A DNA stretch of 64,000 nt, taken from NCBI GenBank assembly GCA_047967505.1, contig CM106538.1; one strand, written 5' to 3'. Shown here in pieces: positions 20,420 to 59,709 of this stretch (the stretch's first letter is position 1; every line of letters begins with the position of its first letter). The notes under the pieces are model-generated. The model made no database searches, was not told the origin of the DNA, and saw nothing but the letters and a program-made list of their open reading frames with translations. This DNA is from Dipteris shenzhenensis. Its lineage: Eukaryota. The translations under genes and the position numbers were made by a program.

Positions 20420-21117
20420 AACCAGGCTTAAAACTGCCCGGGAGCAGCTGGGTAAAGCTCAAGACAGGATGAAAAAGTTTGCAGATCGGAAGAGGAGGCA
20501 TGTAGAGTACGAGGTTGGCGAGAAGGTCTACCTCAAACTGAACCCTGAGCAGTTCAGCATGCCAAAGGAGCTCACGGATCGTCTTGCGCGGAGGTACGAC
20601 AGGCCATACGAGATCCTTGAGAGGGTAGGCAAGCTGGCCTATCGTCTACAACTACCTCCCCATCTACATATTCATCCTACCTTTCACGTTTCCATGTTGA
20701 AGGGTGCTCAAGAAGATGATGATCCAGCCCGTGAGCAGAGGAATAGAGGTTCGGCTCTAGTGATGGATCGTGGAGAGGGTGAAGACCTCGAGAGTATCAT
20801 GGCACATTGTGAGAGACCGAATTAGTTCGGGCCTAACAGGCTATACCATTGTCACTGGAGGGATCAGCCTTCAAGTGAAGACTCGTGGAGGACGGAACCT
20901 TCTCTATGGCGGTTCGTGGACATCGTGCGCGGCTACAATGATTCACACCCCTTTCCAAAGAAGCGGGGGAGCAAGAGTAAAAGAGGGGGAATGTAACGGG
21001 TGGCCCGTTGACAAGGGACTGAGTTTCAGTCCGCTCCTCCTTCATCATCACCTTCGGACTCGACATCGGCAGCAAGGAGGATGTCCTTGCCCTCTTTTTG
21101 GGTCAAGGGGGGAGCAA
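20420..21117 (+). mobile_element. 3' end of a second chromovirus: IN C-terminus, chromodomain, PPT and truncated 3' LTR (20992-21117)
   Basis: MKKFADRKRRHVEYEVGEKVYLKL..AYRLQLP..IHPTFHVSMLK..YHCHWRDQPSSEDSW; PPT AAAAGAGGGGGAA then TGTAACGGG; the LTR matches 26566-26691 in reverse. Confidence 0.9.
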
Positions 21118-23700
21118 TCGGGTTGGAGGTGTGGGCGCGTAGGACGTGGCCGGAGGTACGGTAGCGTTCAGGGCACCACGCGTCGCGACCCGACTCGTGA
21201 GCCTGATGCGCCATCATGGGACGGGGGTGCGGCGGCATCGGGTTGGAGGCGGGGCTATGCGGGTTGTCGTCGGGAGGCGCGGTAGCGTCGGGTTGGAGGT
21301 GCGGGCATGCGAGGCATGGTCGGGGCCACGTTGGGTTGGAGGCATGGGCGCGTAGGACGTGGCCGGGGCGCGGCAGCGTTCGGGGCACCACACATCGCGA
21401 CTCGACTCGGGAGCCCGAGGCGCCACCATGGGACGGGAGCGCGACGGCGTCGGGTTGGAGGTGAGGCTGCGCGGGTTGTTGCCGGGGGCGTGGCAGCGTC
21501 GGGTTGGAGGTGCGAACGCGCGGGGCGTGGTCGAGGGCACGGCAACGTCGGGTTGGAGGCGTAGGCACGCAAGACGTGGCCGGGGGCGCGGCAGTGTCGT
21601 GGGTGTTCGGGGCCTTGCTCCACATTTCAACCTAACACGGGAGCCCGAGGTACCACCGTGGGACGGGGACGCGATGCTGTTGGGTTGGAGGCGTGGTCGT
21701 GCGAGGCATCGTCGGGACGGCAGCGTCGGGTTGGAGGCGCGGCTGCGTAGGGTGTGGTCGAGGCGCAACAGCGTTCGGGGCACCACGCGTCCCGACCCGA
21801 CTGAGGGACCCGAGGCGCCACCGTGGGACGAAGGCGCGGTGACGTCGGGTTGGAGGCGTGGGTGCACGGGGCGTCGCAGGGGGCATGGCGACATTCGGGG
21901 CACCACGCATCTCGACTCGACCCGAGAGCTCGGGGCGCCACCGTGGGACGGGGACGCGACGGTGTCGGGTTGGAGGCGTGGGTGCGCGCGGGAGCATCGG
22001 GGGCGCGACAGCGTCGGGTTGGAGACGTGGGGGGTGACAGCGTTCGGGACGCGACGCGGGTGCTTGGGGGCGCCACGCGTTTTGGCCCAACTCGGGAGCC
22101 TTGAGCACCACCGTGGGATGGGGGCGCGGCGGTGTCGGGTTCGAGGCGTGGGTGCGCTTGGCGTCGTTGAGAAGCACCATGCATCCTGACCCGATCCGAG
22201 AGCCCGAGGCGCCATCGTGGGACGAGGGCGCGGCGGCGTCGGGTTGGAGGTGTGGGTGCACAGGGCGTGGTCGGGGACGCGGCAACGTTGGGTTGGAGGC
22301 GTGGGTGCGCGAGGGCGTGGCGGGGGGCGCGGCAGCATTCGAGGTGCCACGCGGGTGCACGGGGGCACCACGCGTCCCGACCCGACCCAAGAGCCCGGGG
22401 TGCCATCGTGGGACAGGGACGCGGCGACGTCGGGTTGGGGGCGTGGATGCGCGGGGCGTGGTCGGGGCATGGGATTAGAGGCGTGGGTGAGTGGGGCGTG
22501 GTCGGGGGTGCGACAACGTTCCGGACGCCACGCATCGTGGCTCGACCCGAGAGCTCGGGGTGCCACTGTGGGACAAGAGGCACGGCGACGTCGGTTAGAG
22601 GCGTGGGTACGCGGGGCGTCGTGGGGGCGTGGTAGCGTCGGGTTGGAGGCGCGGGTGCGCGGGGCGTGGCCGAGAGGTGCGGCAAGTTGGAGGCGTGGGC
22701 GTGGTCGGGGGCGCAGCAACGTTCGAGGTAGCACACGTCCCGACTCGACTCAGGAGCTCGAGGCGCCACCATGGGACGGGGGCACGACAGGGTCGGGTAG
22801 CTACGGCGAGGGGTGCTCGGGGCGTCGCTGGGGGTGCGGTAGCGTCGGGTTACAGTCGTGGGCGTGTTGGAGGCGTGGGCGCGCGGGACGTGGCGGGGGG
22901 CACGGCAACGTTCGGGGCACCACGCGTCTCGATCCGACTCGGGAGCCCAAGGCGTCACCGTGGGACGGGGGCACGGCGGCGTCGGGTTGCTACGGCATGA
23001 GGTGCGCGGGGCATGGTCGGGGGCACGGCAACGTCGGGTTGGAGTCGTGGGTGCGCAGGATGTGGCCGGGGGTGCAGCAGCATTCGGGGCACCACGCATC
23101 CCGACTCGACTGAGGGGCTCGGGACGCCACCGTGGGACGAGGGCACGGTGACATCGGGTTGGAGGCGTGGGTGCACGGGGCGTTGCAGGCGGCATGGCAG
23201 CATTCGAGGCACCACGCATCTCGACCCGACCTGAGAGTCCGGGGTGCCATCGTGGGACGGGGTCACGGTAGCATCGGTTTGGAGGCATGGGTGCGCGACA
23301 GCGTTCGAGGTGCCACGCGAGTGCTCGGGGGCGCCACGCATCTCGACTCGACCCGGGAGCCCGGGGCACCGTCGTGGGACGGGGGCGCGGTGGCATTCAG
23401 GTGCGCAAGGCATCGGGGTGACGGGGGTGCTCGAGGGCCAAGACGTTGCGGGTGCGTGGGGCATTGATGGCGTCATGGGTCGACGGGATGTCACATCGGG
23501 ACTACGACGAGGGGTCGAGACGCTGCTGCAGGTGTGCGTGGCATTGGGGGCACGACCATGGGGGTCGGGACGTTGCGGGTGCGCGTGGCATCGGGACGTT
23601 GCGCGTGATCAGGTGACATTGCGTGTGGCATCAAGACGTTGCACGACTGGGTCCTTGGTGACACGTGCGCGCGGGTATCAGGGTGTGTGCGACAGGAGAG
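21118..23700. repeat. rDNA intergenic-spacer GC-rich subrepeat array
   Basis: Dozens of GTCGGGTTGGAGGCGTGGG and GGCACCACGC..CCGACTCG..CCGTGGGACGGGG modules directly downstream of the 5S gene. Confidence 0.8.
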
Positions 23701-23779
23701 CGTCGGTCGGGCTTACTGGGTGAGGTCGGCGGTCAGGGATATTAAGGCGTGGCAAGACCGCTAACCTCGAGGGCAAAAA

Positions 23780-23898
23780 AGGTGCAGCACTAGGACTTCT
23801 CGGGAGGTCACCCATCCCAATACTGTTCTGGCCCAAGCGCGCTTAACTGCGGAGTTCTGATGGGATCCGGTGTATTAGCGTTGGTGTGATCGCACCAC
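23780..23898 (-). rRNA. 5S rRNA gene (a few substitutions), linked to and co-oriented with the 45S unit
   Basis: GTGGTGCGATCACACCAACGCTAATACACCGGATCCCATCAGAACTCCGCAGTTAAGCG...GGATGGGTGACCTCCCGAGAAGTCC followed by a T6 Pol III terminator (23775-23780). Confidence 0.95.
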
Positions 23899-37345: not shown

Positions 37346-38530
37346 GGCAACTTGACTTCAGACCTTCCCACTGTGTTGCGCACCACTGTGGTCCATTCTG
37401 TCACCAAGCGTCTCCCACCTCTGCGTTTCCCATCTTTTGCGTCTCTCGTCCTCTGAGCTTTGATACCAAGTGTGAGGGACCAGATCCTCAGGCCTTAGTT
37501 TTTTTTCCTATGCAGCAGATATTTCTTGACCCGGCCCCCTCACCTCAAGCGCACCTAGGACTGACCAGCCCTAGATACACCTGGAGCTATTCTCAACTCG
37601 TTTGCGTTCTGTGATGCCTTTGCGTTTTCCAGCCAAAACGGGCCCTGGCACGTCCTGCACCTAGATGGCCGTTTCCACTCCCAGCCACAATGCGTCCTCC
37701 CCTAGACTGCCGTTCACGGATCCTCTGATCCTCATGCCCCTTTCCTGGGCCACTGCTCCTCAAACGGTTTCGGCTACGCTCTTGTATCCCGGCCTACCGA
37801 TGAAGACACACAGACTCACAGGCCTGCGCAACACCTGACCTTCCTTGGATAGGATCCCCGATTCACAGTTCACACTTAACACTTGCCACACGACGTTCCA
37901 CCTTTAGCCCAGCTTGCTTAGAAGGTTACACAATGGTTCACGAATATTTACAAGGGTATGAAAGGAATGGGCCGCTCACCGTTCCCCGCTCCCTTTCACG
38001 TGCACTCATGCCCTTCCCACGTTTTGCTTTCCAACGTGTGGCCACACAAGTGCACCACGAGATCACAACACGTAAAATGGCCCACGATGTTACTTGCAAG
38101 AAAGTACTAGAAAGAGTGCCAAATGATGGCTTGATAACGCTAGACTGCAAGAAAGAGAGTTTACAAGCAACTGAGCGCACAACCGTACGTTTACGTTTTC
38201 TTGCTAGACACAACCTCACATGCACGGAGACCACCTTCCATATAATAGTTGTAAGGGCCCGGTAGTTCCGGACTTAGTCTCAAGTCGTGGCACCCTTATG
38301 TCGGACCCGTTGCCGAGTCCCAACCTCCCTTAACGTCTCTGTTCTGATACCACAATCCCCTTTATGCGGAGCTTAGCCAAACACGACCCCTGGCACGTCC
38401 TGATCAGCCCATGTTTCTTTCCCGGTTGGCGGCCTTTACGTGGGTCGGCATGTCTAACCCCTTGGGGCTCACCTCGAGTCCCGGCTCGGTACCCAATAGT
38501 TCACAATAGCACTATCCTCCATATAATAAT

Positions 38531-41500
38531 TGTAAGGGCCCAGTAGGACTTAGTCTCAAGTCGTGGCACCCTTATGTCAGACCCGTTTCTGAGTCCCAAC
38601 CTCCCTTAACGTCTCTATTCTGATACCACAATCCCCTTTATGCATAGCTTAGCCAAACACAACCCTGGCACGGGCCGTCTGCCGTTTATCCCACTGCACC
38701 ACGCCCCACTGGGCAAGCCCTTAGGCTTCACGTTCTTCGGTCCACAGAATCACACGGGTGACCAAGACCCCCAAGAACGTCCAGCGTGCAACGTCCTGAT
38801 TAGCCCACATTTCCTTCCTGGTTGGCAGCCTTTACGTGGGTCGACACATCTAACCCCTTCGGGCTCACCTCGAGTCTCGGCTCGGTACCCCAACAGTTCA
38901 CGGTTTATATAGTGTATGGAGAACAAACATGGCCCTCACCGTTCCCCACTCGCTTTCACATGCTCTCAACCCGTCCCACGTTTTATTTTCTCGTGCGTGC
39001 ACTTCAACGCGCACCATAAGGTCACAACCCACAAGATGGCATGATGACGTTACTTGCAAGATGGTACTAGATGGAGTGCCAAACGGTCGCTAAAACGCGC
39101 TTGATTGCAATAGAACGTATAAACAAGCAAGAGGGAGCATAAATGGCTGCTGATGTTTTCCTCATCCGAATCAACCTCGTATGAGAGCACTATCTCCATA
39201 TAATAGTGGTTGGTTGCTAGGCACCGTGGCACCTCCCTTCGCCCAAAAACGCTCCGAACACTCAGAGTAGGTCAACCCTAATGTTGACTTCCTTATACAC
39301 TCCCCCGTTCAAAAGAATTGATGTCCTCATCAATTAAAGGGAGAGCGTTGCCGACTATACACAAAAGCCTAGCCTCACTCAGGTGACTTGAGTGAGTGGC
39401 CACACACACACACACAAAAGCCTAACCCCGATCCAAGAACGTCTCGAATGAGTGGCCACACACGCGCTAGTTTGGACTCTTACATGGGCATCAAAATTTG
39501 CCTTCTCCTCATAACGGGGGGTGAACAATGTAAAGAATGATGTATTTTTACAACATATATTACAAAGAAAACGGTGCCTCAAGCTTTGATGTTTTAGAGG
39601 GGTCACCGCATACACACATTGTTTCCAAAAATGAAAAATTAGCTGTTTGCATAAATTCCCCGGCCAAAATTTCCAACCTGCCAACATGGTAACATCAGGA
39701 CGTGACATTGCTCCGGGCAAATGTTTCCAACCCGCAAGCAACATCAAATTGGGAAGAGGCCCCCTTGGCCAGATTTGCCTTGGAAGCCTACGTATGAGAT
39801 GAATAAGGCAAGCATCACCTGGCCAAAATTTCCACCCCGCTTCCAACATGATTTCATGAGATGACGCTATGCCGGGCCAATCTTTCCACCCTGCACAGAG
39901 CATCAACTGACCACTTGCCACCTGTCCAAGTGAACCAAGTTGCTCACCGGCCAGAACTTCCAACCTGCCCATAGTAAAACGTGCCGCAACGGCTTGATCT
40001 TTCTTTCAGCACGTGTCATCTCCATTGGCTTAGGCAATAAGCCCAAGTAACAAGGAGGGAAAGATTTTGAGCCCATGCTTAGACTCGTCTTTGACTCTTC
40101 CAATCGGATCATGATGTTAACGCACTGCATCCATTCTTTCCATGCGTCTTGCCACGTGGACTTTGAATATTTATGCATAACCCAAGAAAGAATTTTATGT
40201 TTTGGGAGAACTGGACTTGTGCGCTTCAACGTTTTCTTCACCCTGAGCACCACTTCTCTTCTTGACGCTCTTCTTCTCATTCTCACCCATTCTGCACAAG
40301 TCCTTCCACCTCGCTGCGGCTTCTTCTTATCACGTTCTTCTCTTGAACATTGCACCTCACTCAGCCTTGGACCTTTTGCCCTGCATCTTCTTTGCGCTCC
40401 ACAACCTAGACCCGTTCTCCTCTTGGTCTCTTCATCTTGGTCCTTCTTGACCTCATCCTGCTCGCTTGGCCTACATCTCAGCCTGCACTTATGCAACCAC
40501 CTTCCACTTGTTTGCCTCACCTTGGCCTCTTCTTCATCCGCCGTTTCTCCTTGAAACCTTGGCCGTTTCATCCATCCCTTCGTCCTTCCCGCCGTTCTAC
40601 CTTGCCTTGCCTTGCCCTCTTTTCCATCCGCCATTTCCTTTTCTCCTTCTGCCGTTTCCCCTTCACCTTGTGCCATTTCCTCTTCATGCCTTGGCCTGAT
40701 CACACGTCCTTTCATCCCCTTGGCCATCACCACCTTCTTCTCTTCTTCTTCTTCTTCTTCCTCATGCCTTCTCCTCTGCCCCAAGGCCTCACTTCGCGTC
40801 ACGCCTCTGCATCTATCTAGACCTGCACCTGTTCTCCATCGTTTTCCCTTTCCATCTCTTGCCTTCACCTCATGCTCCACCGCCTCACCGTTTTCCCTTT
40901 CTACCTCGGCATCTTTTCTGCACACGCCTCTGCGTTGCCACGGGCTTCTGATTGCTCTTTTTACCTTGCCCTAGTGCCGTTCCTCTTCTTCATCCGAAAT
41001 CTCCACTTGCCACTCCACTATGCCTTCCATGCCTCTCTCTTGAACCTGTTCGGCTGTTTCTCATCGCCTCTACTCCCTTTCAACCGTTTGTGCCTTGAGC
41101 ACTTACCCGTTTCACTCTCGCACCTATCGCATCTTCCTTGGTCACCTGCATGCCTTGTGCATTTTTCCGACTTCCCTTCGGGCCTACCACCTCACTTGGT
41201 CTTGGGCCTGCACCTTCCGCGCTCCTAATCCCAACCTCCTCACCTCGAGCGTTTATTTGATTTGACTTTGGTACGACATTGCTCTTTTCTTTTGTGCCTC
41301 CCGCACCTCTTGTCTCCATCACTGTGCCTTTCGTGCCTCTGGTCTGGATCATCGCGCTTCTTGCACCTCGAGTCTTCACCACGCCTATAGCGTCTCGGGG
41401 TTTTGCATCACCTATCTTCACCAACATGCCTCTTGGATCACTGCCTCCACACCTCGCACCTTCCATGCCGTTTCCTATGCATCTCATGGCTCCCGCGCCG

Positions 41501-42949
41501 TTCCCTCGGGGCTTCGCACACTCCGTGCTACCCGCTTGGGGCCTCGCATCTTCTGTGATGTCCATCGCCTCGGTTGGACCCCAAGTCACCTGTTTGCTGG
41601 TCATCTTACTCGGGGCGCATCTCGCACTCCCACGACACGGTTTCGCTTCCCTGCCTCCACTGGTCATCCCTTTTGTCTCTTTGGCTGCCGTTTCAGATCC
41701 GGTTCTCCTTTCTGCTTGGGCCTGCCACCATACCTGACTCCACCTGCATCGTTCTTCTTCCTTCGAGTCCTTATCTTCACTTTTACTTTCTGAGCCGCTC
41801 TCCGACTCACTCGTTGTTTCATCCTCTGTTTCACTCCTGGACTCCTCTGCATCATCCTCCAACTCCTTCTTCATGTAGAGTTCCATTACCAACTTGAACA
41901 CCACCATGAATTCATGGCGCCACCTGGCCGTCTCACCCTCTGTGTCATACCTCGACACTAGCTGTTCCAAGTATCCCATATCCTTGCTCAGGAGGACGTT
42001 CACCCACTTTGGAACTGCCCTCATCACGTCCACTGCGACTTCCATCTCCGGCTTCCCACTCCTCATCGCCCGTAGTATTGCGTCCTTCCGTTGTGCATAA
42101 GATTGACTTTGCCCATCACGTGATGCCATAGCTCGATATAGGATCCACCTCGAAGGCTCGCGATACCTTGAGGTTTTCTCTGATACCAAGTGTAAGGGCT
42201 TGGTAGTTTCAGACTTAGTCTCAAGTCATGGCACCCTTATGTCAGACCCGTTTCCGAGTCCCAACCTCCCTTAACGTCTTTGTTCTGATACCACAATCCC
42301 CTTTATGCATAGCTTAGCCAAACTTGTCCGCCGTTTATCCCACTGCACCATGCCCCATTGGGCAAGCCCTTAGGCTTCACGTTCTTCGGTCCACAGAATC
42401 ACACGGGTCACCAAGACCCCCAGGAACGTCCACCGCGCAACGTCCTGATCAGCCCACGTTTCCTTCCTGGTTGGCGGCCTTTATGTGGGTCGGCATGTCT
42501 AACCCCTTCGGGCTCACCTCAAGTCCCGGATCGGTACCCCAACAGTTCACGATTTATACAGTGTATGGAGAACAAACATGGCCCTCACCGTTCCCCACTC
42601 GCTTTCATGTGCCCTCAACCCGTCCCACGTTTTGCTTTCTTGTGTGTGCACTTCAACGTGCACCACAAGGTCACAACCCACAAGATGGCATGATGACATT
42701 ACTTGCAAGATGGTACTAGATGGAGTGCCAAACGGTCGCTAAAATGCGCTTGATTGCAATAGAACGTATATACAAGCAAGAGGGAGCGTAAACGGCCGTT
42801 GACGTTTTCCTCATCCGAATCAACCTTGTATGAGAGAGCACTATCCTCCATATAATAGTGGCTGGCCGCTAGGCATCGCGGCGCTTCCCTTCGCCCAAAA
42901 ACGCTCCGAACACTCACGGTAGGTCAACCCTAACGTTGACTTCCTTATA
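38531..42949 (-). mobile_element. Non-autonomous LTR retrotransposon B, nested in the LTR of C
   Basis: LTRs 38531-39297 and 42191-42949; TSD ATAAT/ATAGT; PBS tggtatcagaga 42177-42188; PPT GGGGGAG at 39300-39306; LTR 5'-TATAAGG...CTTACA-3'. Confidence 0.9.
41080..42132 (-). CDS. Element B ORF: conserved unknown N-terminal domain plus acidic/low-complexity tail; likely continues in 39903-40925
   Basis: MASRDGQ..VPKWVNVLLSKDMGYLEQLVSRYDTEGETARWRHEFMVVFKLVMELYMKKELE, just downstream of the PBS. Confidence 0.7.
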   Translation of the reverse strand, partial: AMASRDGQSQSYAQRKDAILRAMRSGKPEMEVAVDVMRAVPKWVNVLLSKDMGYLEQLVSRYDTEGETARWRHEFMVVFKLVMELYMKKELEDDAEESRSETEDETTSESESGSESKSEDKDSKEEERCRWSQVWWQAQAERRTGSETAAKETKGMTSGGREAKPCRGSARCAPSKMTSKQVTWGPTEAMDITEDARPQAGSTECAKPRGNGAGAMRCIGNGMEGARCGGSDPRGMLVKIGDAKPRDAIGVVKTRGARSAMIQTRGTKGTVMETRGAGGTKEKSNVVPKSNQINARGEEVGIRSAEGAGPRPSEVVGPKGSRKNAQGMQVTKEDAIGARVKRVSAQGTNG

Positions 42950-42995
42950 ATAGTGGCTGGCCGCTAGGCACCGCGGTGCCTCCCTTCACCCAAAA

Positions 42996-43241
42996 CTCGG
43001 GGGGGTCACTATGTATTAACCCTCTATATCACGTGCGTTCAAGGCATATTTCTAAAATCCCTTATCTGTAAATTTTTCATTAATAAAATGTACCCTTTTT
43101 CTATACAAATCTATAAATTTTTTTGAAATTTGTTTTAAATACTCCCTTATGTAAATTAACTTTTGTTAAATTTAGATATTAAAAACATCCTTCTGTTGAA
43201 CTCACGTGATAGGGTTACATATAATGAGTGACCCCCCCGAG
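42996..43241 (+). mobile_element. MITE copy 3 (in the LTR of C)
   Basis: Same TIR; TSD ACCCAAAA. Confidence 0.95.
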
Positions 43242-43483
43242 ACCCAAAAATGCTTCGAACACTCACGGTAGGTCAACCCTAACATTGACTTCCTTATACA
43301 CTCCCCTGTTCAAAAGAATTGATGTCCTCATTAATTAAAGGGAGAGTGTTGCCGACTATCCACAAAAGCCTAGCCTCAGTAAGGTGACTTGAGTGAGTGG
43401 CCACACACACACACAAAAGCCTAACCCTGATCCGAGAACGTCTCGAATGAGTGGCCACACACGTGCTAGTTTGGACTCTTATA

Positions 43484-43730
43484 CTCGGGGGGGTCACTAT
43501 GTATAAACCCTCTATATCACGTGCATTCAAGGCCTATATTTAAAGTCCCTTATCTGTAAAAAATTTCATTAATAAAATGTACCCCTTTTCTATACAAATC
43601 TGTAAATTTTTTCCAAAACTATTTTAAATAGTCCCTTATGTATATTTATTTCTGTAAATTTTAGAAATAAAAAAAATCCTTCTGTTGAACTCACGTGATA
43701 GGGTTACATATGATGAGTGACCCCCCCGAG
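43484..43730 (+). mobile_element. MITE copy 4 (in the 3' region of C)
   Basis: Same TIR; TSD CTCTTATA. Confidence 0.95.
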
Positions 43731-46198
43731 CTCTTATATGGGCATCAAAATTTGCATTCTCCTCATAACGGGGGGCGAACAATGTAAAGAATGATGTATT
43801 TTTACAACATATTTTACAAAGAAAATGGTGCCTCAAGCTTTGACGTTTTAGAGGGGTCACTGCATACACATTGTTTCAAAAAATGAAAAATTAGCCGTTT
43901 GCATAGATTCCCCGATCAAAGTTTCCAACCTGCCAACATGGTAATATCAAGACGTGACATTGCTCCGGGCCAATGTTCCCAACCCACAAGCAACATCAAA
44001 TTTGGAAGAGGCCCCCTTGGTTGGATTTGCCTTGGAAGCCCACGTATGAGATGAATAAGCCAAGCATCACCTGGCCAAAATTTCCACCGCCCTTCCAACA
44101 TGATTTCATGAGACGACGCTATGCCAGGCCAATCTTTCCACCCTGCACATAGCATCAACCGACCACTTGCCACCTGTCCAAGTTAACGAACTTGCTCACC
44201 CGGCTAGAACTTCCAACTTGCCCATAGCAAGATATGCCTTGATGGCTTGGTCTTTCTTTCGACACCTGTCATCTCCATTGGCTTAGGCAATAAGTCCAAG
44301 TAACAAGGAGGGAAAGATTTCGAGCCCATACTTAGACTTGTCTTTGACTCTTCCATTCTTTCCATGCGTCTTGCCATGCTGACTTTGAATATGTGTGCAT
44401 GACCCAAGAGATAATTTTATGTTTTGCGAGAACTTGACTTGTGTGCTTCGCCGTTTTCTTCCCCTTTCGCACCAATTCTCTTCCTGACCCTCTTCTTCTC
44501 ATCCTCACCCATTCTGCACAAGTCCTTCCACCTCGCTGTGGCTTCTTCTCATCACGTTCTTCTCTTGAACACCGCACCTCACTCAACCTTGGACCTTTTG
44601 CCTTGCATCTTCTTTGCGCTCCACAACCTAGACCTGTTCTCCTCTTGGTCTCTTCATCTTGGTCCTTCTTGACCTCATCCTGCTCCCTTGGCCTACGTCT
44701 CACCCTGCACTTATGCATCCACCTTCCACCTCTTTGCCTCACCTTGGCCTCTTCTTCATCCGCTGTTTCTCCTTGAAACCTTGGCCGTTTCATCCATCTC
44801 TTCATCCTTTCCTCCGTTCTACCTTGCCTTGCCTTGCTCTCTTTTCCTTCCGCCGTTTCCTTTTCTCCTTCCGCCGTTTCCCCTTCATGCCTTGGCCTCA
44901 TCGCACATCCTTTCATCCCCTTGGCCATCACCACCTTCTCTTCTTCTTCTTCCTCATGCCTTCTCCTCTACCCTAAGGCCTCACTTCACGTCATGCCTCT
45001 GTGTCTATCTAGACCTGCACCTGTTCCCCGCCATTTTCCCTTTCCATCTCTTGTCTTCACCCCATGCTACAGCTCGCCGTTTTCCCTTTTCATCTCGGAA
45101 TCTTTTCTGCACATGCCTCTGCGTTGCCACGGGCTTCTGATTGCTCTCTTGACCTTGCCCCAGTACCGTTCCTCTTCTTCATCCCAAGACTCCACTTGGC
45201 ATTCCACTACGCCTTCCATGCCTCTCTCTTGGACCTGTTCGCCATTTACCGTGCCTTGTGCGCCTCCCTGTCGAGTGACTTGTCTGTCGTTTTTCATCAC
45301 CTGTCCATCGCATGCGCCTTGTGCGCCTAACCCTGTCACTTGTGCTCCCTTTCCACCGTTTGCGCCTTGTGCACCTACCTGTTTCATTCCCGCACCTACC
45401 GTGCCTTCCTTGGTCACCTGCACGCCTTGTGCGTTTTTTCGACTTCTTTATCGAGCCTACCATGTCACTTGGTCTTGGGCCTGCACCTCCTTTGCTCCTT
45501 ATCCCGACCTCCTTACCTTGAGCGTTTATTTGATTTGACTTTGGTACAATGGCACTACTCTTCATTTCTTTCACGCCTCCCGCACCTCTCACGCCTCTCG
45601 TCTCTGTCACCGCGCCTTTCGTGCCTCTGGTCTCTGTAATCGCACTTCTCGTGCCTCGGGTCTTCACTATGCTTATAGCATCTCGGGGGTTCGCACCACT
45701 TGTTTTCACCAATGCGCCTCCTGGGCCACTGCCTCTACACCTCGCGCCTTCTGTGCTGTTTCCTATGCATCTCATGGCTCTCATGCCGTTCACTCGAAGC
45801 TTCACACACTCCGTGCTACCCGCTTGGGGCCTCGCGTCTTCTGCGATGTCCATCGCCTCGGCTGGACCCCAAGTCACCTATTTGTCGGTCGTCTTACTCG
45901 GGATGCATCTCGCACTTCCACGACACGGTTCCACTTCCCTACCTCCACTGGTCATCCCTTTTGTCTCTTTGGCCAGCGTTTCAGATCCGATTCTCCTTTC
46001 TACTTGGGCCTCCCACCATACCTGACTCCACCTGCGCCTTTCTTCTTCCTCTGAGTCCTCATCTTCACTTTCAATCTCCGAGCCACTCTTCGACTCACTC
46101 ACTATTTCATCCTCCGTTTCACTCCCGAACTCCTCTGCATCATCCTCCAACTCCTTCTTCACATACAGTTCCATCACCAACTTGAACACCACCATGAA

Positions 46199-48643
46199 TG
46201 TTGGAATATGGAAGCAAGAACTAGAACTAGAAACTGGAAATGAAATAACAAGACTGAAAGACTAGAAATACCTTGAGAAGAGTGTAGACAAGACACAAGC
46301 TAGACTGATAGATTACAATGATGTGACCCATTGAATATATGGGCCAAAGTACAAGACATAAAGCAAGAGTGCTTATGGGATAATTGTAGAAGTGCCACAT
46401 GGCACATACTCAAGACATAAAGACTAGACTTAGACTTAGATTTAGACTATTGTAGACTAGGAAATAGTACACTTAGTGTGCACTTATCTCCAACACCCTC
46501 CTTAAGTGGACACTAGGAGTAAGATAGAAAGACAAGACTAGAAGACAGACATAAAGACTGATAGACTGAGAGACAAGATAGAAGACATGAGAGACAAAAG
46601 ATCCTGAGACACCCCTCCTCAAGTGATATCCTCATATGGGTCCACAAGGGTAGGGACAAGATGGATCTAAAACACAATCAGATTGATAGACAAATAGATA
46701 GACCAAGACACTAGAACCCCTTGACCTACATCATCAGTGGTCAAGGTGGTAGACAAGACATAGAAGTAATCAGAAAGCCCACTTCTCATCATGTGAGGAA
46801 GGAACAACAGGATCAGCTGATGGAGATGTTGCAGCAACATGGGCTGAGGTAGATGCAGGAGCTGATGTAGAGGTTTTGGAGTAGCAATCCCTCTCCCGGT
46901 GATTATCACGGCCACAAATGGTGCATGGATGAGCCTTGAAACAGTCCTTCTCCACATGATTAGTTTTGCCACAATGGGTGCAAGGCTTTCTTACCTTAGA
47001 ACTTCCTTTCTTTGCTAAAAATGCAGTGTCAGTTACCTTTCGTTGTTGAGTTCTTTCTTTCTCTTGGAGAGCATTGATGATACCCTCAAGAGAAGGATTA
47101 TTATGATACTTGAAGGTAGTGACAAGAGTAGCATAGGAGTCAGGTAAGCTTTTGAGAAGCACAACAATAGCAATATCTTCGGAGATGGGAGACTTGACTG
47201 ATGCAAGCTGAACCATAAGACTGCGAAGATAATTGACATGAGAGGCTATAGTAGCTCCTTCCTGCATATGTAGATCAAAGAATGAGATCATAAGTGCAAT
47301 CTTAGAGTTTTTAGATCGGGCTCCAAAAAGAGTATCCAAAGTGATCCATGCTTGAGGAGCAGACTGTATGTTAGAGATGTGATGAATGTAATCATCTCCA
47401 AGGCCGAGCAATATGATAGCATAGGCTTTGTCATTATTGACAGTGACAACTTGCTCAGATGGACCTTCGGGAGCATCACGGTGAACAATGTCCCAAAGGC
47501 CTTCTTTCATAAGATGGCACTTGATTTTGATCTGCCAGGTATGAAAGTTGGACCCATTGAATTTGTCGATAGATATGAGAGAATGAGAGGAAGATGCCAT
47601 GTGGGAAGGTCTTACCTCTTGCTAGGATGCAAGGGCAGTGTCTATTCCCTTACAATATTGCAGAAATAAATGAGAGGAAGAGATCTCAGAAGCCGGTTCT
47701 CTCACCACTTTGTCAGGGCCATAGCATATGACAGCCCATCGAAGCAGGAGGAACCAGCAAAAAAGGAGAGACTGTTCAGCAAACTGAAAGAGGCAAAGCT
47801 TAGTACCTTAAACCCGGGCAGAGGTAGAGGTGCAAAAGGATGCAGATCTTTGTGAAGATGGAGCTGGAGATGTCAGCTTGTGCAGATACGGATTTTGTAC
47901 AGTCATACGGACTGTACGAATAGCTGATGATGTACGGACGGCAAGCAGCGTATGGAGTATGGACGATGTATGGCGACGTACGGATGGTAGAGTACGGATG
48001 ACGTACAAAATTCGGGTGATGCTATACGGATAGCAAGGATGGGTGCTAGACTGCACAGATTTGTCGGTGACAGCAAGTGTTGCACAGATCTAGCATGACA
48101 GTAGATCTGGCGCTCAGATCTATGGCTGAAGCGCAGATCTGGCGCAGAGATTTGGAGTGGGCGCAGAGATTTGGAGCAGGAATACATGCAGTAGAGTCAC
48201 GCAGATCTAGAGCGCAATGGCGGGGCAGAACTGTAGCAGGGGAGAGAAGAGGCAGATCTGAGCGGGGGGGAAGATCTGTATTTGAGAAGAGACAGACTTG
48301 AGAAGAGAGAAGAGGGAGAAGAGGGATCAACCTAGCTCTGATACCATGTTGGAATATGGAAGCAAGAACTAGAACTAGAAACTGGAAATGAAATAACAAG
48401 ACTGAAAGACTAGAAATACCTTGAGAAGAGTGTAGACAAGACACAAGCTAGACTGATAGGTTATAATGATGTGACCCGTTGAATATATGGGCCAAAGTAC
48501 AAGACATAAAGCAAGAGTGCTTATGGGATAATTGTAGAAGTGCCACATGGCACATACTCAAGACATAAAGACTAGACTTAGACTTAGACTCAGACTATTG
48601 TAGACTAGGAAATAGTACACTTAGTGTGCACTTATCTCCAACA
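46199..48643 (-). mobile_element. Gag-only copia-derived element D (TR-GAG-like), nested in the ORF of C
   Basis: 297-bp LTRs 46199-46495 and 48347-48643 (about 5 visible mismatches); TSD ATGAA; iMet PBS 48335-48346; PPT next to 46496. Confidence 0.95.
46770..47600 (-). CDS. Copia-type Gag (UBN2-like region plus two CCHC knuckles)
   Basis: KFNGSNFHTWQ..LLKSLPDSY..CTHCGKTNHVEKDC..CTICGRDNHRERDC; intact 276 aa. Confidence 0.93.
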   Translation of the reverse strand: MASSSHSLISIDKFNGSNFHTWQIKIKCHLMKEGLWDIVHRDAPEGPSEQVVTVNNDKAYAIILLGLGDDYIHHISNIQSAPQAWITLDTLFGARSKNSKIALMISFFDLHMQEGATIASHVNYLRSLMVQLASVKSPISEDIAIVVLLKSLPDSYATLVTTFKYHNNPSLEGIINALQEKERTQQRKVTDTAFLAKKGSSKVRKPCTHCGKTNHVEKDCFKAHPCTICGRDNHRERDCYSKTSTSAPASTSAHVAATSPSADPVVPSSHDEKWAF

Positions 48644-48939
48644 ATGAATTCAGGTGCCACCTGGTCGTCTCACCCTCGGTGTCATACTGCGACACTAGCC
48701 GTTCCAAGTACCTCATGTCCTTGCTCAGGAGGACGTTCACCCACTCTGGAACTGCCCTCATCACATCCACTACGGCTTCCATCTCCGGCTTCCCACTCCT
48801 CATCGCCGTAGTATTGGCTCCTTCCCTTGTGCGTAAGATTGATTGACCCTCTTCTTCTCATCCTCACCCGTTATGCACAAGTCCTTCCACCTCGCTGCGG
48901 CTTCTTCTCATCACGTTCTTCTCTTGAACACCTCACTCA

Positions 48940-50075
48940 CTCAACCATGTCGAAGTCATCCATTTCCACTACAAAAAATTCTGACTTGTGAGAACAGCCT
49001 CCCACTTGGACACCCACTTGGACACTGACTCCTTTGGCCACCTTGGCAACTGCTTGTCCTTGAGTGTTTACTGTTTTCATGACCTTGCCTTCACAGATTT
49101 CAGCTTTCAGCCCGATCTCCTTGGCTTTCTTAGAGGTGATGCAGTTATGGCTAGCCCCGCTGTCCAGCATAGCCCTCACTGGGCATCCGTTTACTGTAGC
49201 AGTAATGAACAGCAGATCAGAGGCTACCTTATCCTCACTCATGGCCCCTAGAAGCTGAAGGGGTGTCATGGTTTGGGTGGGCTGTCCATTTTCTGTTTCC
49301 TGGATAGTTTGTAATGACTGTCGCATAGGGCAATCCCTGGAAAAATGAGCTCCTGTGCAGATGTAACAACCACTCCCTTTCGGGGCTGAAAGACTCAACG
49401 AAGCCTTTGCTGACCCCACACTACTCTTGGGCTGAACAATGCTTACTGTACCTTTACCTTTTTGAGCAGCAGTAACTTCAGGTTTCTGCTCAGCTGGAAT
49501 CTCTCCCATAGGGCGGTACTTCTTTTTGGAGCCAAACCGCTTGAACTTTCTCTTCTCAAATGGGGAAACCCCTTGTTCAGTTGGCTTGGGCTTGGCTTGA
49601 CCTTGTCTCTCACCACCATGTTGTTTCTCTTGCCAATTGGTGAGGCGATCCACTACCTCGTATGCTTCAGCCACTATCTTTACATGCTCCCTCATGAGCT
49701 CATCATGTGCCCAAGGCCTCAGCCTTTTGATGAAGTAGTAAAGTCGATCGGCCTCACTCATCTCCTTGATTTGTAGCATGAGGGAGGAGTGAGCTTTGAT
49801 GAACTCCCTCAGGGTTCCGGTGTGTTTGAGACTATTCAAGGCATCCCCAGCCTTCCATTCGATGTCGAAGGGCAGAAACTGCAACCTCAGCCTTTGTGAG
49901 AGCTCCTCCCATGTGGAAATTGTGTAAGTGTTGCGGTGGGTTCTCTCATCTTCCTTGTATAAGTTTCTCCACCAAAGCTTGGCATCGTCCACCAAGTAGG
50001 TTGAGGCATGAAGCACTTTCTCCTCGGGCTCAATTATCTTGGCGAGGGCAAGATATTGCTGCATGTCATAGATAA
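48940..50075 (-). mobile_element. Ty3/gypsy chromovirus (Galadriel-like) gag-protease fragment
   Basis: YDMQQY..TYLVDDAKLWWR..LKHTGTLREF gag, CYICTGAHFSRDC knuckle, AMLDSGASHN protease; truncated at both ends. Confidence 0.88.
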
Positions 50076-50633
50076 CACCTATTTCATTAATTTTGGACTC
50101 TTGCACTGTCCAAATTCATTTTGTGAGATAATTCTGGATAAAACATTTCAAAAAAAGAGGCTCTTATAAAACAAAACATTGAGTCAAAAATGAAGATTTA
50201 AAAAAATCAAATTAGAAAAAATGACGTGAGATGTTAAAAATAGAGTACATCACATTGTTAAAAGAGACAAAAAAGTAAGATTTTAAAAAATCAAATTAGA
50301 AAAAATGGCATGACATGTTATGAAAACTAGAGTACATTTCAAAAAAGAGCACATCACATTTGTACATTTCAAAAAAGAGCACATCACATTTGTAAAGAAG
50401 TAGATCATATTACTCAAAGCCATATGGTGTCAAAAAACACCTTAATACAGTCTCTCTTAACATCATATTAACATCACATTTGTACAAGAAGTAGATCATA
50501 TTACTCAAAGCCATATGGTGTCAAAAAACACCTTAATACAAAGCCATATGGTGTCAAAAAACACCTTAATACACCTTAATACAAAGCCATATGGTGTCAA
50601 AAAACACCTTAATACAGTCTCTCTTATCTAAGT

Positions 50634-55200: not shown

Positions 55201-58200
55201 CATGCAGTTGTAGGCGACTCTCCACCCACAGCTGTGTCCATCTTTTTGCTCCACTGGCAGACGTCTTTTGAATTCTACTTGATCTTGTTGCTCCGTGGTT
55301 GTTCTAACAGCAGATACTAGCCGATATGCAGCACTGTCCAGCATGACATATGAAATATATTAATATGTCATGATCATAAGATACAAAATAAGAAAGTATC
55401 AAAAATATTAAGAGAATAATTACCTTGGGGAGTTAGCATGATAGCCTTCTATTGAATTCACAAACCATAAATGGTTGAGTTCAAGGTCCCAGAAGATCAG
55501 ACTCCAATGTGAGCTACACGACCAGAATAAAAATGATTATTGTTTTACACAAACTTGCCAAAGAAATAGTAAAAATAAGGTTAGAGTTGATACTTACGCC
55601 TCATGATAAGGCATTAAGATGACTCGCACCCCATCTAAATTCAAAGGGCTTAACCAGGTACAAACATCTTCTATAGTCTTTTGAGGAGAGCTAAGAATAG
55701 AAGAAAGGAGAGCATCGAGCATGTAGACACGATGCTGCACTGTACTAGGAAGTTGAGAAATAACTACACTGCACCAAGAAATAAACAAACATTAGCTCAT
55801 AGAATTGATTTGCATTCTGCACTAGGAAACTGATATATAACTGAACTGTGAATAAATAAACAAATGTTAGCTTATTGAAGTAGCAATAAATAAATAAACA
55901 TTACCTGAGAATGGCCAAGATAACATTGTCATTAACCTCTTTTAAAGGATTGGAGAGGATTGAAACCTCCTCTCTACCAAAGCTTAAATACTGAGGTTCT
56001 CGTTTCAAAACGATCTTAACTTGAAATGAGCTCTCCATTTTATCTAATGCAGCTAAATTTGATTTTTCAATCAAATTTAGAGGTGGTTGCATTGTTGAAG
56101 TAGAAGGGAGTGCCTCCGTATTGACTTCATCCATTTCTTCTCCCTCTATTGCCTGTAAACAAATATGAGAGATTAGATTCATTATCTTTAAATTTAAATC
56201 TTATTTAAAAAATTATATTTAGTTGAGAAATAGAGAGTTCATACCGCTAAGTATTGTCGTAGTGGCCTTTTTTCATAACCCTGCGAGCCATAATTATCAA
56301 AGAGGGCATCATCATATTTGTCTTCATCCACCAACCTCTCTGTGAATGGGTCATGTAAGTCCATCTTTTTATCATCAACAACTGGGACATTATGATCTTC
56401 AAGGTAATCATCCATGTCATCGGTGTCCTTGTGGTCTATCTCTTTTTCATAGCCTGTGGTTAGATCTGCTTGAAGCTGGAAATAGGTCATGAAATGCTTA
56501 TTTTCAATAATATTGGTGGAGTTGCCTTTTCTTAGGAGATCCTCAAATAAATATCCCATCCTGCACAAGGTGACCTCCCAACCTGCCGGCAGCAAATTCT
56601 CCATCATGGTAAGCAAGAGACTCCCACTTTTTGCAGGACTTCCATAGTTGTTTTTTTGATAATGTATGGACCTGGGAATATCTTGCTCTTCTAGCATCAA
56701 TCTCAAATTATTTGAATTCCCTCTTATGTTCTTTTGTAAAGAGTGATCAGGGTTGGGACTCCGCATACACAGAAAGAATGATTCAAGAGTTTGAATCGCT
56801 ATGCCACATTCTCTCTTGCCTCTCTTTGCTGCATAAACACCACTATAGATCTTCAAATCTGATGAATATGCTCGCTCTAGAGTAACCTGCATGGCTTCTT
56901 TGTCTTTTTTATCAACAAATATGACAATGTTACAAATCGCCACTTTGCTAATGGTGGTATATACTATTCTATCAATGAAGTTATGGATATCATCGCTAGA
57001 AACTTCATTGATAAAGAATAGTTGTGGCTTATCCCATGCTGACTCATTCTTAAAGAAGTCATCTTCTGAGACTCCCCTGAAGTTGACAAGCTTTCCAGAC
57101 TCTGCTGTAACCTCTACATTGAATTGAAAGCTTTGGTGCATATTTGTCGGCATTCTTATCTCGCTGATTAATCTTTCCACATATGCAACCACCTGTTGTG
57201 GGATCTCTTTTCTCATATAAGAGGTTACTATTTCCGACCCATCTTCATCCTTTTTAATCCACCTGTTTGCCCATAGCTTTACCTTGGGTGTTGACAAAGA
57301 AGCTATATGCTTCACCACATTATAGTCAATGTTACAATGAGTAAGTGGAATTTGTTTCTCTGACAGCAAATACTTGATGGCACTATGCACTGCATCACGC
57401 CTCACCTGTACATTGATGCATTCTTCCATGCAGTGGTCTTTGTCTTTTTTTCCAAAAAACCATTCTTTCTTTAAAATTTTTTGTGCTGCCATGGATGCAT
57501 ACTTATCAGGTAAGTACTTTACAGGCCTCCACATCCTTGCCGTCAACTCCTTCTTATCCATTACCTTTGACTTGCCGGAGATAAACAAAGGAGCTTCATA
57601 GGTCAGCTGTCCACGCTCAGAAGCAATGCACGTTTCAAGCATCTCATTGAACACTTCAACAGGACGAAATATGATAGAAGTATAGTCGGCATATCTGTCC
57701 CTCACCACCTTGAGGCTTGTCATACTTTCTTCCCGCTCTTGGGTTCCCCTAGGCACAACTGCACTCAAAGAAGTATAAAAGTTTGTGAGTGTGTCGGCGT
57801 CTGCTTTTGTGACCTTTCGCTTCAAATCAGGATTTGGGGAACCAAATGTTGTCCATATCACCCTTGCCTTCTGTAAGACCTCTGATGTTGAGGATATCTT
57901 ACGCTTTCCATGGACATAATGATTAAGTCTTTCGGACTCAATCAAATACTTAATCTCATGCTTGAATATACAGATCGTTGCAGGATAATAATGGAATGAG
58001 CTTATCTTTACAAATTGTTCTGGAGTGAGTCTTTTGCCCTCCTTTGCTTCCCTTGCGATCTGATTACAAGCATAAGCCCAATGTTGACCATCAATGGGCT
58101 GGAATCTGCAATGAAGGAGAAATTCCTTCTTGACTTCCTTTAGCATATTCTCTCCTTGTGCCTCTTCGCCTTGTTCATGTGGAATATTTTTTAGAGTGTT

Positions 58201-59709
58201 TTTAAAGAATTGACTGAAGATCTCCTCGAAATGTGTAGGCCCTGTAAATGTTATTTGATCCAGAAAACTATTTTTGGTTGGACAAAACATTATTGGGCGC
58301 AAGACCACATTACTTGCCACAGGTTTCTTACCATCTCTCAAAGCCTCGTATATTTGCATTGCATAGGATATATCAAGGCTTCGGCTATTAGTAAACAGAG
58401 CTGCAGCTTCCACATCTTTGGCATTCACAAACCACGTCCTTTGACCCCAGATATATCCCACATCATCATCTGTAACTGCTTCATTAAGACGCAGATTAAG
58501 ATTTTTAATTGATGTGAGTTCATCTTGATCATCTTCAGCCTCGGATTCTGAGTCTTCTTCATCTTTCTCTTTTTTTGACTGTTTTTCATCCACATTATCT
58601 TTCTCTACAGTGGGACGATGTCTTTTCTTACTGCTTGGAACCGTGGCTCTTGCAGTACTAGCCTTTTGCATTTCACGTCGTGGTTTGCTAGCAAGAGCTT
58701 CTAGCATAACTGCAGTGGATCGACCTTGATCTTCTTCAATTTTTGCTAATTCCCGTGCACTCAAGGCTTGTTTTTCATCATCCTTAGTTACATTCACCAT
58801 TTCTGGCTCTAGAAGTTTGCGCTCATGTTCTACAGGTTTGTGACAGTGTGCCTGTTCTTCTTGTCCCTGCATTGAAGTCTGAGCTTTTTGATCTCCTTCA
58901 TGTGATGATCTCGGGGGGGTCACTATGTATAAACCCTCTATATCACGTGCGTTCAAGGCCTATATTTAAAGTCCCTTATCTGTAGAAAATTTCATTAATA
59001 AAATGTACCCCTTTTCTATACAAATCTGTAAATTTTTTCCAAAAATATTTTAAATAGTCCCTTATGTATATTTATTTCTGTAAATTTTAGAAATAAAAAA
59101 AATCCTTCTGTTGAACTCACGTGATAGGGTTACATATGATGGGTGACCCCCCCGAGGTGATGATTCTTGCATATGGAGAGCATATTCTGCATCCTGAAAG
59201 TATTCAAACATTATCTTTGCATGCATCCTTTTTGCCACCACACTAGGAAATTGCTCCCAAGTATATGAAAGAGTCTCCAATGCCCTTTGCAGCTCTGGAA
59301 ACTTTGATGGTTGAGGAGGAGGCATCACAAAGGTCTTTGCGTCTCTCCTTGACACAATAAAATGCATACCGCCAACTTCAGGATCTGAACTCTTTGTAAA
59401 AATATCCACAAAGGTGTCTTTTCGCTGAATTATTATGCCTACTACAAGACTTGAAGTCATATCTTTTTTGAAGAAAGTAGCATCCCATGGATCTTCAACA
59501 CCATTGAACTCCCTTTTTGACATAAGTAGAAAGAGTCTCTTTTCCTTTTGATGAAGAAACCAAGCTCTTCTACCCATGTGATATCGAGTCCACCTACCAA
59601 AGCCATTGGGGCTATATTCCTTTCCTTTGAAATTCAAAGTGACATCAGAAACCCATTCTCTGATCTCAGAGTCATCTAGCATAGCCATCACATTAGCTGA
59701 TTGCTCCAT
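52218..59709 (-). CDS. Multi-exon gene: ParB-like region, degenerate DNA amino-methyltransferase-like region, three Ulp1/C48 protease domains; interrupted by MITE 5
   Basis: ATG 59709; removing the MITE fuses the 246-aa and 905-aa ORFs (HMQESSHEG); phase-compatible GT-AG junctions (56245>56152, 55905>55768, 55598>55513 and onward); three HWSL..VNS..Q..CGWRV.YNC sets. Confidence 0.8.
58910..59156 (+). mobile_element. MITE copy 5 (in the large ORF)
   Basis: Same TIR; TSD GTGATGAT. Confidence 0.95.

Follow-up and report, generated by a model that had tools for sequence, protein, structure and literature searches.

Three related LTR retrotransposons upstream of a decayed 18S gene and a possible captured 5′ junction in the LTRs of two of them

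The window, i.e. the whole analysed stretch of 64,000 nucleotides, contains one rDNA unit, a pseudogene with a MITE within its 26S. Directly upstream of the decayed 18S, on the minus strand, lie three related non-autonomous LTR retrotransposons, designated A, B and C. Direct LTRs, target duplications, a PBS and a PPT, the features by which an LTR retrotransposon is recognized, were found in both A and B, which measure 4.4-4.6 kb with LTRs of ~760 bp. C ends abruptly at 48842, with neither PBS nor 5′ LTR. The elements and their parts are as follows.

33684-38244, minus strand: A, complete element
33684-34441, minus strand: 3′ LTR of A, A-type, without the extra block
34442-37470, minus strand: internal region of A, with PPT (34442-34459), PBS TGGTATCAAAG (37458-37468), ORF1 homologue (36912-37270) and MITE (36157-36403)
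37471-38244, minus strand: 5′ LTR of A, A-type
38250 to 48842 (where it breaks off), minus strand: C, split by B
38250-38525, minus strand: body of the 3′ LTR of C, B-type, with an internal deletion
38531-42949, minus strand: B, complete element, inserted within C
38531-39297, minus strand: 3′ LTR of B, with TATA box (38905-38911)
39298-42190, minus strand: internal region of B, with PPT (39298-39315), PBS TGGTATCAGAG (42178-42188), ORF1 (41080-42129) and ORF2 (39903-40970)
42191-42949, minus strand: 5′ LTR of B, with internal ATAGT (42855-42859) and block (42860-42949)
43299-48842, minus strand: internal region of C, with MITE (43484-43730) and a copia-type gag-only element (46200-48643) flanked by the duplication ATGAA

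The paired LTRs were identical at 707 of 758 aligned positions in A and at 696 of 751 in B. In both elements the PBS, TGGTATCA(A/G)AG, which we take to be that of tRNA-iMet, begins 2 nt past the end of the 5′ LTR, and the purine-rich PPTs (34442-34459 and 39298-39315) are homologous. The LTRs of A and B are homologous over ~275 bp at the end where the block lies (74.6% over 283). A TATA box (CTATATAAAC / CTGTATAAAT) is situated at LTR position ~390, ~290 nt downstream of the block; Pol II transcription would probably begin from it, with the block carried as a passenger.

Twelve ORFs were taken into a Pfam scan, and the nine of them (at least 80 aa) located inside A, B or C gave no match above family cut-offs. 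No gag, protease, RT, RNase H or integrase domain, as expected of an autonomous Ty1/copia or Ty3/gypsy element, was thus found in the ORFs of A, B and C; the gag and protease matches at 46770-47621 and 48937-50115 belong to other elements. ORF1 is common to A, B and C, has no relatives in Pfam (0) or Atlas (0), and its residues 33-140 found none in a search of 5.8 billion proteins. The ORFs of B were also compared with the neighbouring gypsy gag-protease, and no kinship was found. A search with the copia RT yielded unnamed matches of up to 74% identity and, among named organisms, angiosperm matches of ~44-59%.

Copies of the target pentamer or its variant, one of them overlapped by a further motif, lie at the borders of the insertions.

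33671-33681, minus strand: TATATTATGGG, a motif like a plant Pol I start site, which overlaps the target pentamer and lies ~410 nt upstream of the decayed 18S
33679-33683, minus strand: ATAGT (ACTAT on the element strand), 3′-side target duplication of A, beside unique flank
38245-38249, minus strand: ATAGT, common to A (5′ side) and C (3′ side)
38526-38530, minus strand: ATAAT, 3′-side target duplication of B, matching ATAGT at 4/5 positions
42950-42954, minus strand: ATAGT, 5′-side target duplication of B and at the same time the internal ATAGT of the LTR of C

The 5-bp duplications are therefore ATAGT/ATAGT for A, ATAAT/ATAGT for B and ATAGT at the surviving end of C. That B was inserted precisely at the ATAGT inside the LTR of C, as the sequence-only reading had proposed, was borne out: parts of C were found at both ends of B, next to the duplications ATAAT and ATAGT. 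The order along the window is the C LTR body (38250-38525), ATAAT (38526-38530), the whole of B, ATAGT (42950-42954), the remainder of the block, the C PPT and the C internal region. Segments 38250-38382 and 38395-38504, within the body of the 3′ LTR of C, share 92% identity with the 5′ LTR of B.

The LTRs of A terminate in ...CCTTCCATATA, whereas those of B run on past ...CTCCATATA with ATAGT and a further 90 bp, ending in ...GACTTCCTTATA beside the PPT (39298-39315). The proposed composition of the B/C LTR, an A-like LTR followed by ATAGT and ~90 bp, was accordingly recovered at 39203-39297, 42855-42949 and 42950-43298, in the following copies.

39203-39297, minus strand: internal ATAGT (39203-39207) and 90-bp block (39208-39297) of the 3′ LTR of B, opening on the element strand with TATAAGGAAG
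42855-42949, minus strand: second copy of the block with its ATAGT, in the 5′ LTR of B
42955-43298, minus strand: block of the 3′ LTR of C, interrupted by a MITE (42996-43241)

The interrupting MITE is 246 bp long and flanked by an 8-bp duplication, ACCCAAAA, at 42988-42995 and 43242-43249. After its removal the third copy amounts to 95 nt, identical at 88/95 positions to the copy in the 5′ LTR of B and at 82/95 to that in the 3′ LTR. The two block copies in B are identical at 85/95 positions and the LTR body of B at 611/656, and since the block has diverged like the body, it was already in the LTR when B integrated. No further copy of the block was found in the window by blastn (word 7, E up to 10).

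In the orientation of the elements, the added segment consists of a 10-nt look-alike of the LTR terminus, 80 nt of unrelated DNA, ACTAT, and then the normal LTR start. The first 10 nt equal the LTR terminus at 8-9 of 10 positions and adjoin a PPT homologous to that of A. Other compositions were tried and set aside. A duplication of the LTR start does not account for the block, which past its first 10 nt was equalled or exceeded in score by 17 to 97% of shuffles (15 comparisons). Nor is it former internal sequence that a shift of the PPT uncovered, as the PPT of B is homologous to that of A and the block end is not purine-rich. As the scar of a tandem LTR-LTR arrangement, with the block end being an LTR end, it matched at 5/13 positions, by eye on the junction alignment. 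The hairpin pointed out earlier, GTCAAC-cctaat-GTTGAC, is present at 39271-39288, with a mismatch in the closing pair in the third copy, but the folding of the block does not stand out from that of shuffles (z -0.12 to -0.69, 4 folds). Against Rfam, 33262-50200 yielded no match at E up to 1, neither to 5S nor to any other family. A true 5S gene was detected with the same Rfam library at 23779-23897.

All three insertions occupy ACTAT (or ATTAT) sites with an extended context. Plain ACTAT occurs 135 times in the window; the extended motif ACTAT-W5-GGRR (ACTATWWWWWGGRR) occurs five times, always within the nest, against 0.05 expected, and none of 100 shuffles reached five. In the junction alignment, the block end followed by ACTAT and the LTR start is built like an LTR end followed by ACTAT and either an LTR start or flank. 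The LTR of B and C thus carries an internal target of its own family, one used by B in C, and to this extent the idea of a self-insertion site was upheld.

We consider the 95 bases to be, with somewhat better than an even chance, a fossil 5′ junction that was absorbed into the LTR; the evidence comes from one locus, whose three insertions possibly share a history. A, B and C would form one non-autonomous family that integrates in one orientation into ACTAT preceding TATATGG-like sequence, a context that also resembles the first bases of the LTR itself. In the ancestor of B and C, ~80 bp from immediately upstream of a resident copy may, along with the ACTAT duplication of that copy, have been copied into the end of U3. 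The likely route would be either aberrant reverse transcription of a transcript begun in the upstream flank or deletion between neighbouring copies, the join presumably being made at the 10-nt microhomology with the LTR terminus (TATAAGGAAG vs TATATGGAAG). Each 5′ junction would recreate the target motif, which would account for the head-to-tail pair of C and A; the order of these two is inferred. With the junction absorbed into U3, every B/C LTR would hold a complete target (ACTAT and LTR start). Chimeric LTRs produced by abnormal template switching are described for plants, e.g. BARE-2 and Veju, in one review (PMC13317346), a passage of which also states that 5′ transduction is unreported in plants (PMC13317346).

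The block may instead belong to the ancestral U3 and have been lost from the A subfamily by a 95-bp deletion between 10-nt direct repeats (TATAAGGAAG ... TATATGGAGG). Two such repeats do bound exactly the segment missing from A, and the PPT and first 10 nt are collinear between A and B; however, it would take a coincidence (~1 in 1024) for the 5 nt before the second repeat to be those of the target duplication, and the likeness of the entire internal site to a true 5′ junction would likewise have to be fortuitous, so that we regard this origin as unlikely. The internal ACTAT would then be no integration scar, which is to be judged just as unlikely. A small foreign insertion, SINE- or MITE-like, at the LTR start with a 10-bp target duplication would be compatible with the 85-bp insert between imperfect 10-nt direct repeats and with the activity of MITEs in the region (the window has 5, of which one lies in the block). 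The insert, however, lacks terminal inverted repeats, yielded no tRNA-like, 5S-like or other RNA family, has no further copy in the window and terminates in the target pentamer of the family itself, and a foreign origin is accordingly very unlikely. Least credible is the proposal that the third copy (42950-43298) arose by tandem duplication in place or through misassembly rather than by nesting. This copy does abut the block of the 5′ LTR of B, placing two copies head to tail, but the other half of the LTR of C, with ATAAT, sits exactly at the opposite end of B (38250-38530), and the third copy bears a MITE and substitutions of its own (88/95 identical), which makes a duplication or artefact extremely improbable.

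The sequence-only reading had further suggested that the flank taken up was the core promoter of native rDNA (~-95 to -1); the B/C LTR would thereby have gained both a self-insertion site and a portable Pol I promoter, with transcription from the internal ACTAT/TATATGG. The anatomy of the block, an upstream flank with a target duplication, agrees with the capture of upstream DNA, but the identity of that flank as core promoter was not supported, and we hold it to be quite unlikely. In its favour, the only target in the window outside the elements lies ~410 nt upstream of 18S on the rRNA strand, and this native target overlaps the only TATANTANGGG of the window, a sequence that resembles plant start-site motifs as quoted in PMC3692318, PMC6589552 and PMC4043768. 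Were the family restricted to this rDNA site, whatever flank it captured from upstream would be promoter DNA. Downstream of the native site, the flank also weakly resembles the LTR start of A (0.003 to 0.018 of controls reached the score in anchored alignment; 0.027 to 0.18 did so for the B LTR bodies), a resemblance that a simple flank-capture model leaves unexplained. An older LTR hidden in 33262-33683 was sought by local alignment to 5 LTR bodies, and the scores were no better than those of shuffles.

Against a Pol I promoter, whose start-site motif in plants is TATATA(R)GGGG / TATA(R)TA(n)GGG, the site differs by 2 mismatches from TATATARGGGG, a level of agreement found 29 times in the window vs 27 expected, as often as by chance; TATANTANGGG, a pattern relaxed after the sequence was seen, occurs once vs 0.28 expected, and 26 of 100 shuffles had at least one. 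In the decayed rDNA unit next to the elements, other, non-canonical sequence stands in place of the first ~45 nt of 18S, so that the 420 bp upstream need not be 5′ ETS. Moreover, the LTR has its own TATA box, the block is conserved no better than the rest of the LTR, and its hairpin is not significant against shuffles. That the family homes to the rDNA Pol I start site, in the way that Ty3 does to those of Pol III, and that the LTR of B and C took up the core promoter (-95 to -1), is less likely still.

The native upstream flank is absent from the window because the 5′ end of C was lost at 48842, and core promoters are described as too variable between species for comparison by proxy (PMC6589552). 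Metagenome contigs gave 0 matches to the exact 24-nt stretch beside the target, where, the rDNA copy being decayed, a 24-mer could miss even the same species, and 0 to a 35-nt pattern that is conserved in the LTRs of both A and B. A 25-nt pattern from the block likewise gave 0 matches among viral contigs and prokaryote genome contigs.

If a 5′ junction was indeed absorbed, as we favour, the locus would show a route by which upstream flanking DNA enters an LTR, a route given as unreported in plants by the text of one review (PMC13317346). The family would also make its own copies into preferred landing sites, giving rise to nests and head-to-tail arrays and sparing host genes. Should the flank prove to be promoter DNA, the same route would offer a way for a Pol I promoter to become mobile. 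Under the full promoter proposal, each copy would serve its relatives as a decoy landing pad and would itself be a mobile unit of Pol I transcription, and the family, the first LTR element of this kind, would be the Pol I counterpart of the Pol III capture by Cassandra.

Few plant LTR retrotransposons integrate with motif precision. In other hosts, Ty3 is targeted to Pol III start sites and 17.6/297 of Drosophila to TATA-like sequences; A, B and C share with them a base- or motif-precise choice of target near transcription start sequences, whereas Ty3 and 17.6/297 belong to other hosts and lineages, and to our knowledge neither carries its own target inside the LTR.

Cassandra TRIMs, described as having a 5S-derived Pol III promoter inside their LTRs (PMC10946416), are likewise non-autonomous plant LTR elements whose LTR holds DNA from elsewhere, in our case possibly from rDNA. 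The parallel drawn with them earlier stands as an analogy only: neither 5S nor any other Rfam family was found in 33262-50200, A, B and C are not TRIM-sized, and the putative captured piece lies at the outer edge of U3 together with a target duplication. Pokey, a piggyBac DNA transposon of Daphnia reported to be rDNA-specific and to carry IGS-derived repeats (PMC3849761), is similarly site-preferring, rDNA-associated and provided with non-coding DNA taken from near its home; A, B and C, in contrast, are LTR retrotransposons, and an origin of their block from rDNA is putative. Chromoviruses of the Galadriel lineage (Beon, TRRT, Monkey), which are listed as occurring in plant 18S genes (PMC10946416), are also plant LTR retrotransposons accumulating in 35S rDNA. 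They are, however, autonomous Ty3/gypsy elements with a chromodomain and lie inside 18S, whereas A, B and C are non-autonomous, have no recognisable gag or pol, and occupy a site upstream of 18S that is set by a sequence motif. There is also a likeness to BARE-2 and long Veju, in which a new LTR class arose from foreign sequence added during replication, as that review describes (PMC13317346); unlike theirs, the piece added here looks like an upstream flank with its target duplication, in the manner of a 5′ transduction.

The elements A, B and C, which lie on the minus strand near a decayed 18S gene, are one family of non-autonomous LTR retrotransposons with two LTR types, and were delimited as follows.

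33679-33683: ATAGT ending the unique flank (...CCCCATAAT-ATAGT)
33684-38244, minus strand: element A, with LTRs 33684-34441 and 37471-38244
38245-38249: ATAGT between A and the LTR body of C
38250-38525, minus strand: B-type LTR body, internally deleted, left half of the C LTR
38526-38530: ATAAT between the LTR body of C and B
38531-42949, minus strand: element B, with LTRs 38531-39297 and 42191-42949
42950-42954: ATAGT on the far side of B
42955-43298: 90 bp of the extra block described below, MITE-interrupted, right half of the C LTR
43299 onwards, minus strand: polypurine tract (PPT) and internal region of C, 84-88% identical to the internal region of B
41080-42129 (B), 36912-37270 (A), 45355-46198 and 48654-48806 (C): ORF1, an open frame of the internal region

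In both A and B, the primer-binding site (PBS) TGGTATCA(A/G)AG lies two bases past the 5′ LTR, the PPTs are homologous, and the LTR termini read TATATGG/TATAAGG ... CCTCACA/CCTTACA on the element strand. The paired LTRs are identical at 707 of 758 positions in A and 696 of 751 in B, with transitions making up the majority of the differences. No gag or pol domains were found inside the three elements. The ORF1 protein, in which some 80 aa at the N-terminus form a conserved domain and acidic low-complexity sequence follows, is 46-51% (A) and 75% (C) identical to that of B, and the ORF1 DNA of A and B was not alignable by blastn despite this amino-acid identity. No relatives were obtained from Pfam, a 5.8-billion-protein search or the Atlas; ORF1 may be a family-specific gag substitute. 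C ends abruptly at 48842, and its PBS, 5′ LTR and upstream flank are therefore lost. Attached out of order to its truncated 5′ part, with TTGA microhomology at the join, is a 100-bp piece (48843-48943; 95% identical to 44485-44588 of C and 91% to 40262-40363 of B), which lies against a gypsy gag-protease ORF (48937-50115) where that ORF ends. This piece may be left over from a local rearrangement or from a fourth member of the family that stood upstream of C.

As the sequence-only reading had described, the B/C LTR differs from that of A by an additional ATAGT and about 90 bp (the block), located between the LTR body and the PPT in both LTRs of B and in the LTR of C.

39203-39297: ATAGT and block
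42855-42949: ATAGT and block
42950-43298: ATAGT and block, interrupted by a MITE that has an 8-bp duplication

The three copies are identical at 82-88 of 95 positions, and no block-like sequence occurs elsewhere in the window. The two copies in B match at 85/95 positions, against 611/656 across the rest of its LTRs; the block is as divergent as the remaining LTR. By the time B integrated it was therefore a genuine component of the LTR, and it has received no special conservation since. The same reading placed B exactly in the internal ATAGT of the C LTR, and this was borne out: half-LTRs (38250-38525 and 42955-43298) flank B with the duplication ATAAT/ATAGT, so that the B/C LTR holds its own target site, occupied in C by B. 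The observed structure is real and tidy. In the block of C, 42967-42982 (AGGCACCGCGGTGCCT) is a perfect 16-nt palindrome from which the copies of B differ at CpG/TpG positions; the exact symmetry may be a chance product of CpG decay and not an ancestral feature.

Along the element strand, the order is PPT, TATAAGGAAG, 80 nt, ACTAT and the normal LTR start in the B/C LTR. Of the 10 positions of TATAAGGAAG, 8-9 agree with the normal LTR start, while the 80 nt showed no similarity to LTR starts (15 comparisons; 17-97% of shuffles equally good). The 80 nt, ACTAT and LTR start have the layout of a family 5′ junction, that is, flank, target duplication and LTR, and the proposal that the block is captured upstream DNA is in this respect structurally well supported. 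In the simplest reading, the upstream flank and duplication of an ancestral copy would have been copied into U3. A transcript initiated in the flank could have been reverse-transcribed and its strong-stop DNA transferred to the start of U3, next to the PPT, by means of the 10-nt microhomology, which would put the flank inside both LTRs; alternatively, a deletion between an upstream copy and the 5′ junction could have been followed by read-through. Both routes are plausible. Abnormal template switching is known to have created new LTR classes in BARE-2 and Veju, and in the review sections consulted 5′ transduction is stated to be unreported in plants (PMC13317346). Loss of the block from A by deletion between two 10-nt repeats is a weaker explanation, under which the pentamer preceding the LTR start would equal the family duplication only by coincidence. 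Also weaker are a small foreign insertion, which has no supporting features, and an assembly or duplication artefact, with which the matching half-LTR at the other end of B is incompatible.

ATAGT (ACTAT on the element strand) bounds each of the three elements, all in one orientation, and on that strand a TATATGG-like sequence follows every used site.

Unique flank: ACTAT-ATTATGGGG
Start of the 5′ LTR of A: ACTAT-TATATGGAA
LTR body of C: ATTAT-TATATGGAG

Five matches to the motif ACTATWWWWWGGRR were counted over the 64 kb, all within the nest, against 0.05 expected (0/100 shuffles reached 5), whereas the bare pentamer occurs 135 times; the family therefore selects a target motif of about 12-14 nt. 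Half of this motif is the first bases of the LTR itself, so that each integration provides a new target at its 5′ junction, which explains the head-to-tail pair C-ACTAT-A.

The nest lies in a TE-rich plant region containing a single 35S rDNA unit (27184-33261), which is solitary and decayed.

33261-31443, minus strand: 18S
31127-30975, minus strand: 5.8S
30730-27184, minus strand: 26S
23897-23779, minus strand, as the 35S unit: 5S gene
27482-27728, 36157-36403, 42996-43241, 43484-43730 and 58910-59156: copies of a 247-bp MITE
46200-48643: copia-type gag-only element, 2.4 kb, inside ORF1 of C, duplication ATGAA

The five MITE copies (86-98% identity) include one interrupting the 26S gene (27482-27728), one in A and two in C, of which one is within the block; the termini CTCGGGGGGGTCAC.../...GTGACCCCCCCGAG and the 8-bp duplication on the copy checked suggest a hAT-like family. 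The copia-type element (298-bp LTRs 98% identical, PBS 48336-48346) codes for gag only (Retrotran_gag_2, zinc knuckle) and is a young non-autonomous insertion. Neighbouring DNA comprises a copia element, a CACTA transposase fragment, this gag-only element and a gypsy gag-protease fragment. A 906-aa open frame (56239-58959, minus strand), whose end adjoins a MITE copy, had no Pfam match. Two fields of tandem repeats, rich in GC (60-69%) and unrelated to each other, have repeat units of roughly 100-170 bp and lie at 21100-23400, adjoining the 5S gene on its downstream side, and at 62900-64000, and 20992-21117 is an inverted copy (94%) of 26569-26691. The 5S gene is about 3.3 kb downstream of 26S on the same strand; direct linked arrangements are described in Ginkgo, Ephedra and bryophytes, and angiosperm linked units carry 5S on the opposite strand (PMC3692318).

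The putatively captured DNA had further been proposed as, plausibly, the rDNA core promoter. Only one target is outside the elements. It is on the right strand, about 410 nt upstream of the 18S gene, and overlaps TATATTATGGG; TATANTANGGG occurs nowhere else in the window, although this looser motif was relaxed post hoc, after the site had been seen. TATATTATGGG is reminiscent of two motifs described for plant start sites, TATATAGGGG and TATA(R)TA(n)GGG (PMC6589552, PMC4043768, PMC3692318), but the stricter consensus must be allowed 2 mismatches to fit, and fits at this level are about as frequent as chance predicts (29 against 27 expected). About 30 nt past the site weakly resemble the LTR start of A (controls reaching the score, 0.003-0.018). 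Against this, the initial ~45 nt of the adjacent 18S are unrelated in alignment to the universal 5′ end, and the 420 bp upstream may therefore not be 5′ ETS; a 20-nt motif that we take to be this universal end had no match even when 3 mismatches were allowed. Upstream of the unit, the window contains neither another rDNA unit nor a matching IGS, and the native flank upstream of the target is absent from it. Four pattern scans of public sequence collections gave 0 matches. The block hairpin is not significant, and a canonical TATA box at about position 390 in the LTRs of B would be enough for ordinary Pol II transcription. Derivation of the flank from promoter-proximal rDNA is unlikely, and a working portable Pol I promoter in the B/C LTR is speculative and highly improbable.

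Ty3 and 17.6/297 are LTR elements with precise target choice, and the A/B/C family is like them in this respect. The family is not Cassandra, because 5S is absent from the elements, nor a Galadriel-type chromovirus, because coding domains are absent. An LTR element that targets the Pol I start site was found neither by literature search nor in the portions consulted of the text and tables of a review on rDNA and transposable elements (PMC10946416). The likeness to Cassandra (PMC10946416) and Pokey (PMC3849761), as described in the sections consulted, is limited to foreign, possibly rDNA-related cargo, and the formation proposed for the B/C LTR is like that of the chimeric LTRs of BARE-2 and Veju.
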